From positions 1 through 57,725 of the forward strand of contig VMEV01000005.1 of assembly GCA_007375725.1 (NCBI GenBank): a DNA stretch of 57,725 nucleotides, read 5' to 3'. Shown one piece after another: positions 18,767-19,975 of this stretch. The position numbers and the translations under genes are program-made. The number at the start of each line of letters is the position of its first letter. Within the stretch, counting starts at the first letter, position 1. The notes below the pieces were generated by a model. The model saw only the letters and a list, made by a program, of their open reading frames with translations, ran no database searches and had not been told where the DNA came from. This DNA comes from Parcubacteria group bacterium Greene0416_36 (GTDB taxonomy: Bacteria > Patescibacteriota > Patescibacteriia > VMEV01).

Positions 18767-19975
18767 GTGTTTTCTATTCAAAAAAAATCCACCCTCAGTC
18801 ACGCTCGATTGGGCAAGTTAGAGACGCCGCACGGAGTCCTTGCGACTCCGTTTTTCATGACCATTGCCACGTCCGGCGCGGTCAAGACTTTGGATACGGT
18901 TTTTTTGGAGGAAATGGATATTCCGATTCTCTTGGGGAATACGTATCACCTGTATCTCAAGTGTCCGGGAGATTTGATGAGAAAGGCGGGAGGGCTTCAT
19001 GGGTTCATGAAATGGGATCGGCCGATTCTGACTGACAGCGGAGGTTATCAGGTTTTCAGTCTGGCCAAGATGCGAAAAATCACGGAAGAAGGCGTGAATT
19101 TCTCCTCGCATCTCGACGGCTCCACACACATGCTCACTCCGGAGAAATCCGTTGAGATCCAGCTCAATCTCGGAGCGGATATCATCATGGTTCTGGACGA
19201 ATGCCCTCCTTATCCGGCGAAGAAAGAGTATGTGGATGAGTCACTCGAACGCACGACCCGATGGGCCAAACGATGCAAAATTTTTTTTACGAAAAATTAT
19301 AAGAAGATGGGGTATGGGGTGGCTGGCCGTGTAGGGGCACAGTGCGCTGTGCCCCTACATCACGTCGGCGGCAGGCCTTTATTATTCGGCATTGTCCAAG
19401 GCGGCACCTACGAAGATTTGCGGGAGAAAAGTCTAGCGGAAATCCGCAAGATTTCTTTGGATGGGTTGGCCATTGGCGGCGTGGCTGTGGGTGAACCCAG
19501 TGAAGAGGTGCAGAGAATTGTCTCCTTTATCGTTCCCAAAATGCCTAAGAATAAGCCGAGGTATCTCATGGGTGTCGGGTTCCCGGAAGATATCGTGTTT
19601 GCCGTGCGTCAAGGCGTCGACATGTTCGACTGCGTGATCCCCACCCGCCACGCGCGGCATGGGGGATTGTTTATTTGGAATCGGGATTTATCACGAGGTA
19701 AGGGTGTATTGCAATACGCCCTTACAGGTGGGCAGGACGGAAAAAACTTTTACAAAAAAGTGAATATCAAGAATGAGAAATATAAATACGATCTGGATCC
19801 TTTGGATTTGAAGTGCGGGTGCTTTACCTGCCGCAATTATTCCCGTGCCTATTTGCGCTATCTTTTCGCCACCGAAGAGATGCTCTCATATCGTTTGTGC
19901 ACCATTCATAATGTGTGGTTTTATCAGGAGGTGATGAAGGAGATTCGGGAGCAGATTAGGGAGGGGAAGATTTAA
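18767..19975 (+). CDS. tgt: tRNA-guanine transglycosylase (queuine tRNA-ribosyltransferase) with two in-frame palindrome insertions
   Basis: [51 protein letters not shown] and [17 protein letters not shown] motifs. Confidence 0.9.
19331..19358. repeat. GTAG-headed 28-nt perfect palindrome inside tgt
   Basis: GTAGGGGCACAGTGCGCTGTGCCCCTAC, read as [10 protein letters not shown]. Confidence 0.9.
19698..19725. repeat. GTAA-headed 28-nt palindrome inside tgt
   Basis: GTAAGGGTGTATTGCAATACGCCCTTAC with one G-T mismatch, read as [10 protein letters not shown]. Confidence 0.8.

Follow-up and report, generated by a model that had tools for sequence, protein, structure and literature searches.

The system closest to the one reported here is that of TnpA_REP subclass 2.4, which corresponds to group 4 of RAYTs (REP-associated tyrosine transposases), and of the repetitive extragenic palindromes (REPs) that accompany it. 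We compare with it two 28-nt palindromes that lie inside the tRNA-guanine transglycosylase (TGT) gene, tgt, of Parcubacteria group bacterium Greene0416_36, a member of the Patescibacteria or Candidate Phyla Radiation (CPR). The DNA analysed, hereafter the window, is the 57,725-nt contig VMEV01000005.1 (C16 in the numbering used here), one of the 25 contigs of a 1.03-Mb genome with 45% GC.

Transposases of subclass 2.4 are about 194 aa long and display the motifs NH[IFV]H, WQ and YIxNNP (Quentin, Siguier, Chandler and Fichant 2018, PMC6006769). Their "double foot" REPs, with GT[AG]G at the 5' side and C[TC]AC at the 3' side, also occur in frame within the transposase gene itself, between its HuH motif and its Y motif, where they are thought to be harmless (PMC6006769). 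According to the same authors, a double-foot REP could arise from a REP dimer by central deletion, and the subclass has been described mainly from Cyanobacteria and Bacteroidetes (PMC6006769). The genome studied here shares with this subclass a paired-foot hairpin, a putative Y1 transposase of about 200 aa and the presence of REPs both flanking and inside its gene. It departs from it by its host, a CPR bacterium of about 1 Mb, by feet that are most commonly GTAA/TTAC, by a WH in place of the WQ motif and by the proportion of intragenic copies, which amount to about one third.

REPs lying in frame inside genes are on record for several species, where repair genes and genes for tRNA-related enzymes are frequent hosts (Di Nocera, De Gregorio and Rocco 2013, PMC3733652); the dimeric ones add 20-30 residues to the protein, and the authors relate them to the Rickettsia palindromic elements (RPEs). 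Like those REPs, the present ones are tagged by GTAG, are for the most part located 3' of genes, in the space separating tandem or convergent open reading frames (ORFs), and include a subset in frame, and their hosts again comprise DNA repair and tRNA-related genes, here uvrC, a UvrD-like helicase gene, argS and tgt. However, the GTAG tag described in PMC3733652 is unpaired at one end of the hairpin, whereas here it is paired with CTAC in a fully symmetric structure, and neither CPR genomes nor tgt are among the cases described there. The RPEs (Ogata et al. 2000), as far as they are presented in PMC3733652, are likewise selfish palindromes found in frame in the housekeeping genes of a small genome, and their inserts are said there to be translated as surface-exposed segments, the function of the host protein being kept. 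With a core of 28 nt, net inserts of 39-45 nt and a host from another phylum, the palindromes of the window would resemble the RPEs in behaviour only. The Rickettsia elements are several-fold longer, roughly 100-150 bp, and presumably share no sequence with the present ones; they are not known to be associated with a transposase. Bertels and Rainey reportedly considered, in 2011, that REPINs, in which two inverted REP feet form a hairpin, are the replicative unit of RAYT-dependent spread. REPINs measure about 100 nt with their spacer; the palindromes reported here share their symmetric two-foot hairpin and, unlike them, are minimal at 28 nt.

We consider it likely that the two tgt palindromes represent two subfamilies of a single genome-wide family of double-foot REPs, associated with a RAYT and tolerated in frame in two loops of the enzyme. 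This membership in a genome-wide family with a RAYT escaped the initial annotation of the window, and it makes the case ordinary in kind. What is new is the CPR host and the gene, tgt, which has been hit twice; the phenomenon of in-frame intragenic REPs is already documented.

The tgt palindromes and their genome-wide family

Both palindromes have exactly the sequence and position first assigned to them (Table 1) and consist of a 12-bp stem closed by a 4-nt loop, the RNA hairpin being predicted at -22.9 kcal/mol (z=-5.5) for copy 1, GTAGGGGCACAGTGCGCTGTGCCCCTAC, and at -16.2 kcal/mol (z=-5.3) for copy 2, GTAAGGGTGTATTGCAATACGCCCTTAC. An outer imperfect stem of 6 bp lengthens the hairpin at site 1, so that the fold of 19311-19378 reaches -42.2 kcal/mol. 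Copy 1 is one position off the genome consensus GTAGGGGCACAGCGCGCTGTGCCCCTAC, and its centre, TGCG, is not self-complementary, the consensus centre of the family being CGCG; copy 2 is one stem position (G-T) off GTAAGGGCGTATTGCAATACGCCCTTAC, the commonest subfamily of the genome. As each of the two differs by one transition from its subfamily consensus, both have begun to decay. In the reading frame of tgt, copy 1 encodes VGAQCAVPL (residues 189-197) and copy 2, read in the other stop-free frame, (G)KGVLQYALT (residues 311-320). The pattern GTAGGG-N6-30-CCCTAC has four matches in the window and GTAAGGG-N6-30-CCCTTAC one, against 0.00 in shuffled windows; a chance origin of the palindromes is excluded. 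Their sequences point to two independent insertions, and the GTAG...CTAC feet of copy 1 fit the published GT[AG]G/C[TC]AC consensus. A role of the tgt palindromes as intragenic terminators was considered and rejected, since both lack a T tail, and neither receives a terminator score.

At the scale of the genome, perfect palindromes with a stem of at least 11 bp number 128, compared with 1 in a shuffled genome, and 72 of them have a GTA(G/A) core. The family counts 82 members (at most 2 mismatches, 28-33 nt) distributed over 22 of the 25 contigs, with main subfamilies represented by perfect copies of GTAAGGGCGTATTGCAATACGCCCTTAC (19), GTAGAGACGCGCCATGGCGCGTCTCTAC (10) and GTAGGGGCACAGCGCGCTGTGCCCCTAC (8). 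Intergenic copies account for about 60% of the family (49/82), though the intergenic share of the genome, as obtained from a crude ORF call, is only about 14%. Furthermore, tandem or convergent ORFs border 45 of the 52 non-coding copies, which usually follow a gene by 10-40 nt. A run of A on the left and a run of T on the right border 32 of the 49 intergenic copies, and the palindrome is lengthened by a median of 9 nt; to judge from these arms, such copies have the shape of a two-way intrinsic terminator. The intergenic copies are centred exactly in longer palindromes that are specific to each copy. Most of the 23 solid coding copies consist of the core alone; their median extension is 1 nt, and A/T runs accompany only 2 of them. 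Short, multi-copy, dispersed, mainly extragenic and placed 3' of genes, the family shares these attributes with double-foot REPs.

In-frame copies occur in the Pfam-confirmed genes uvrC, murC, murF, argS and rmlD, the latter carrying two copies, as well as in genes encoding a UvrD/PD-(D/E)XK helicase and GT4 and GT2 glycosyltransferases. Several membrane-protein genes also hold in-frame copies; one of them, the 695-aa ORF at C17:56388-58475 (G000, locus L044), contains four perfect or near-perfect in-frame REPs and at least one decayed copy (GLGAQRAVPLQG). The coding copies use only two frames, both free of stops (18 and 12 copies, respectively), and the peptides that recur are VRAYCNTPL or VGAQRAVPL for one frame and KGVLQYALT or RGTARCAPT for the other. 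The remaining frame begins with TAA or TAG; its absence among coding copies would be expected from selection and also from the very definition of "coding", so that the argument drawn from the frames is partly circular.

The inserts in the predicted TGT protein

The 402-aa product of tgt matches the TGTs of the PDB with phmmer E values down to 2.7e-106, Pfam PF01702 is annotated on a protein identical to it, this same protein is found in assemblies from 4 samples (for instance run SRR8438314), and the related TGTs carry Patescibacteria or Parcubacteria labels. In an alignment with 26 of the best database homologues, D90, D144, D288, C350, C352, C355 and H381 occupy invariant columns. From the phmmer alignment, we take these residues to be the equivalents of the catalytic aspartates (D102 and D280, plus D156) and of the zinc ligands of the Zymomonas mobilis enzyme. 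The AlphaFold2 model (mean pLDDT, the per-residue confidence, 80.9; predicted TM-score, pTM, 0.85) superimposes on Z. mobilis TGT entries, including 1OZM and the tRNA complex 1Q2R, with a target-normalised Foldseek TM-score of 0.88. The product is predicted to have the TIM-barrel fold of a TGT, together with its catalytic Asp residues and a zinc site of the Cys3-His type. With its catalytic aspartates and zinc ligands kept, the enzyme looks intact despite both inserts and would presumably retain its activity.

The phmmer alignment with the TGTs of known structure falls into three blocks, interrupted at query residues 174-199 and 305-331. Only 3-8 and 1-3 residues, respectively, occupy these two breaks in the solved enzymes of E. 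coli and Z. mobilis, and each insert amounts to 23-24 additional residues relative to them. In comparison with the two nearest homologues (61-63% identity), the net excess is 15 aa at site 1 and 13 aa at site 2 (45 and 39 nt, respectively), and the reading frame is preserved in both cases. Neither segment was found in 30 TGTs encoded by genomes belonging to the same order and class, nor in 26 of the best database homologues.

These comparisons uphold what the initial annotation had proposed, namely that both insertions keep the frame, that they occupy short surface loops, which the model renders as low-confidence coil between conserved elements, and that TGT is otherwise intact. Its estimate of about 20 residues per insert agrees with the comparison with E. 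coli and Zymomonas and overstates the part that is specific to the lineage. It had also foreseen that the segments might turn out to be ancestral parts of TGT or to disrupt the active site as in a pseudogene; in fact they are missing from the closest homologues, and the model, whose core superimposes with the TM-score given above, bears no sign of such a disruption.

Since no relative is closer than about 60% identity, no empty site at the nucleotide level is available and the exact boundaries of the inserted units are not definable. Those of site 1 can be moved by a few nt because Gly-Arg codons stand on both sides. At site 2, two homologues read GGT AAA GGT or GGA AAA GGA, coding for Gly-Lys-Gly, at the place taken here by the REP foot GGTAAGGGT, and Gly-Lys recurs 3' of the insert; the Gly-Lys-Gly at the position of the foot could be a coincidence or a hint of the choice of a foot-like target. 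A target-site duplication (Gly-Arg at site 1, Gly-Lys at site 2) is mentioned as a remark only, the left copy at site 2 being within the REP foot and the alignment ambiguous. A rule by which the insert would equal 28 nt plus a flank extension k, with k = 2 mod 3, was dropped, as the values of k in the coding copies (0-10) disagree with it. The TGT genes of two relatives, at loci L008 (G022) and L013 (G014), are masked by runs of N at site 1 and site 2, respectively.

In the model, site 1 is a coil between the helix 153-181 and the strand 205-210, with pLDDT below 50 at residues 184-193, and site 2 is the tip of a hairpin between the strands 300-304 and 329-333, with pLDDT below 50 at 309-312 and 321-324. 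The 15 and 13 extra residues are probably disordered. In a TIM barrel, helix-to-strand connections are on the face opposite the active site, and site 1, being such a connection, is expected by this general rule to lie there. The site 1 loop has a median of 25 residues in CPR TGTs (range 14-81) and 41 in the protein of the window; the corresponding values for site 2 are 18 (range 3-49) and 28. In several homologues the two loops are occupied by unrelated peptides of a repeat-like kind, and one relative (G016) has at site 1 an unrelated insert of about 200 nt that folds as a long hairpin (z=-5.97). These variable lengths and unrelated inserts indicate that the loops are permissive and have been hit repeatedly. 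The site 1 insert of another relative (G024), hairpin-like with RNA parameters, was not retained because it is not significant as DNA (z=0.61).

A third insertion-prone loop is present in CPR TGT homologues after the FSLA motif (alignment columns 113-150; P0061, P0093, P0103, P0104 and P0114), and in several Moranbacteria-like TGTs it contains repeat-like peptides such as RGLTSSRLEVRPR and HPVKFRQGRTFAKGEGFDRV.

The RAYT-like transposase and other features of the window

Another contig of the genome carries a RAYT-like gene, the ORF C12:86916-87515, spotted by its PNHVHGII and YIKNNP motifs and matching the NCBIfam model NF047646 (REP-associated tyrosine transposase) with E=4.6e-18. In its product, NHVH and YIKNNP are separated by REP-derived units of about 30 aa, and the W motif reads WH. 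One REP lies upstream of the gene (C12:86296), one 42 nt downstream (C12:87560) and one inside it, so that the locus has the organization of a REPtron, a REP-flanked cognate RAYT gene, albeit with a match that is below the 80-bit equivalog cut-off and is split by the insert. A search of the whole genome for Pfam Y1_Tnp (PF01797) gave no match, a false negative caused by the splitting of the domain by REP units, and phmmer found no match to the RAYT-like protein among solved structures. Three tandem 30-nt units, including GKDNVLESRP / GKGTVLESLP, are found within the gene at C12:87190-87300 (G000, locus L049); the third alone is a perfect REP, and the second retains just the 5' half of another subfamily. 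Such a period of 30 nt would fit a unit of 28+2 nt.

In all, the genome contains one full-length RAYT-like gene and two fragments. One of the latter, C19:46319-46612, lies at the end of its contig, displays WQ and YIISNP and has a GTAGAGAC-type REP just after the HuH motif; the other is near the end of the window (Table 1). Of the 201 genomes of the class that were searched, 54 contain the pattern GTARRRRC-N12-GYYYYTAC, with a patchy distribution, while the reversed pattern used as a control yields 0-2 matches; the source genome has the highest number of palindromes (65). RAYT-like matches are present in 118 of the 201 genomes, with up to 16 per genome.

Table 1. Coordinates, in the window, of tgt, its inserts, the REP family members and the RAYT-like fragment
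Feature	Position	Strand	Basis or remark
tgt (queuine/preQ1 tRNA-ribosyltransferase)	18767..19975	+	402-aa ORF hosting both palindromic inserts
REP copy 1, GTAGGGGCACAGTGCGCTGTGCCCCTAC, 28 nt, GTAG...CTAC feet	19331..19358	.	inside tgt
REP copy 2, GTAAGGGTGTATTGCAATACGCCCTTAC, 28 nt, GTAA...TTAC feet	19698..19725	.	inside tgt
About 45 nt of net insert (15 aa) at site 1, roughly R188-G202	19328..19372	+	codon comparison with homologues P0002 and P0004
Region with net 39-nt (13-aa) insert at site 2, boundaries ambiguous	19697..19744	+	codon comparison, alignment
Family member GTAGGGGCACGTTGCAACGTGCCCCTAC, in frame in a 622-aa membrane-protein ORF	11754..11781	.	preceded by a half-copy at 11736
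Perfect consensus copy between convergent ORFs	23998..24025	.	nested in a second REP-foot pair
Family member GTAGGGACGTTGCATTGCAACGTCCCTAC, A7/T7 flanks giving a 55-nt palindrome	44396..44424	.	shape of a bidirectional terminator
N-terminal RAYT-like fragment, ending before the HuH motif	57396..57638	+	53% identity over 47 aa to the C12 protein, E=2e-15

The perfect copy lying between convergent ORFs is part of a composite arrangement at 23975-24050, in which it is nested within a second foot pair (GTAGGGGC ... GCCCTTAC) and accompanied by A6/T6 runs, as would result from the entry of one REP into the middle of another hairpin.

Other repeats surround tgt. Directly after its stop codon, a long hairpin of 136 nt (19977-20112; RNA fold of -78 kcal/mol) is a member of a second repeat family, far more abundant, whose motif, CCCTTTGACAAGGG, is matched about 220 times in the genome. 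When translated, repeats of this family (e.g. ...NPSPALPLTREGVAASPLSKGD or NKSLPNPPFDKGG) supply what appear to be the C- or N-termini of several ORFs, the xseA-like ORF 20153-21466 among them. Just upstream of the tgt start, 18677-18763 is an imperfect inverted repeat with 27-nt arms and units of the AAGAATG/AAGAATT type (-28.7 kcal/mol); similar heptamer-like inverted repeats are found at 45255-45341 and 33265-33351.

Proposed spread of the palindromes and tolerance by tgt

According to the explanation that we favor, double-foot REPs linked to the RAYT would have multiplied in this lineage. The copies located behind genes would persist, or would have been recruited, as terminator hairpins, and a minority would have landed in genes, where the surviving copies would be those that keep the frame, avoid the one containing stops and sit in tolerant loops. 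In tgt, two independent events would have hit the loop preceding the LFGIVQGG strand and the tip of the beta-hairpin preceding the zinc subdomain; the hairpin DNA would be kept in the mRNA and translated as 15 and 13 extra residues without damage to the enzyme. We infer that the RAYT is responsible for the mobilisation of the REPs.

Several observations weigh against this explanation. No TGT above about 60% identity (best ~59-63%) was found among 5.8 billion proteins or in the genomes examined, and the net inserts (45 and 39 nt) exceed the 28-nt core by 17 and 11 nt, for which the explanation does not account. Copy 2 and the commonest subfamily, with their GTAA...TTAC feet, fall outside the published GT[AG]G/C[TC]AC consensus; the hybrid copy GTAG...TTAC at C2:10461 of the same genome and the GTAG versions of the GTAA-subfamily stem found in other genomes of the class suggest that the GTAA foot is a derived variant. 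As for the transposase, the C12 protein scores 65.5 bits for a NCBIfam cut-off of 80 and 20.7 with Y1_Tnp for a Pfam cut-off of 23, and it is in the full-length gene that WH replaces the WQ of the subclass. Furthermore, the Fisher test linking palindromes and RAYT (matches in 31/33 genomes with at least 3 palindromes vs 87/168 others, p=1.6e-6) is not corrected for shared ancestry, and 70 of the 147 palindrome-free genomes have a RAYT match. These RAYT-bearing genomes devoid of the 28-nt GTAG double-foot pattern probably hold other types of REPs.

Such genomes are also what would be expected if the REPs had spread without RAYT, by gene conversion, by hairpin template switching during replication or by recombination, the RAYT genes being colonised bystanders. 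That scenario would suit the self-complementary flanks proper to each intergenic copy (median 9 nt) and the nested copy, which are reminiscent of symmetrising at the DNA level or of hairpin-targeted copying, and it would accommodate a full-length RAYT interrupted by REP units next to two fragments. We nevertheless regard it as unlikely, because the architecture matches the pairing described for subclass 2.4 in detail, including the in-frame REPs between HuH and Y (PMC6006769), and because the association between palindromes and RAYT across genomes is strong.

Two other proposals bear on tgt itself, and we give each of them very little credit. The inserts could be absent from the protein, through removal from the mRNA or programmed translational bypassing, or tgt could be a decaying pseudogene. 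The invariance of the catalytic and zinc residues, the lack of stops and the presence of an identical protein in assemblies of 4 samples argue against decay or removal. The stability of the hairpins (-16 to -42 kcal/mol) would be compatible with skipping, since the bypass elements of T4 gene 60 and the "byp" elements of yeast mitochondria have stable take-off structures. Yet both tgt inserts and all of the at least 23 solid intragenic copies are in frame and confined to the two stop-free frames, which would be needless if they were skipped or excised, an argument that is partly circular as frame-breaking copies are not scored; and no intergenic copy stands between obvious halves of a split gene, as judged by ORF sizes and distances only. 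Alternatively, the hairpins or the loops might have been selected for pausing or stabilising the mRNA, as sites of RAYT-dependent recombination or as a lineage-specific interaction surface of TGT. In many CPR TGTs, additional segments, often repeat-like, do occur in the same two loops, and both tgt copies keep their pairing through a G-U-compatible change. However, the segments of other lineages show no relationship in either sequence or length, a better fit to tolerance than to function, the tgt copies have started to drift from their consensus, and the model gives the inserts no structure.

A bolder extension of the REP insertion explanation, which we put forward as doubtful, would have small hairpin repeats regularly feed the growth of protein loops in CPR bacteria with reduced genomes and little intergenic DNA, with non-random integration at hairpin apices and foot-like targets. 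It is prompted by the independent uptake of unrelated repeat-derived segments by the same two or three TGT loops in many CPR lineages, by the centring of intergenic copies in unique terminator stems together with the nesting of one copy in another, and by the ancestral GGTAAAGGT at tgt site 2, located exactly where the foot GGTAAGGGT now sits. If true, such integration would imply a guide-like choice of target by the RAYT.

The current understanding of REPs and of TGT is unchanged by this case, which marks two loops of TGT as tolerant to insertion. For annotation, it would account for odd loops and recurring low-complexity peptides (e.g. VGAQRAVPL) in CPR proteins, and it calls for caution before REP-derived segments are taken as functional motifs. 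For the biology of these bacteria, it suggests that selfish hairpins of the REP/RAYT type are active, or recently were, in an ultra-small Patescibacteria genome, and that they may reach conserved housekeeping enzymes without breaking them.

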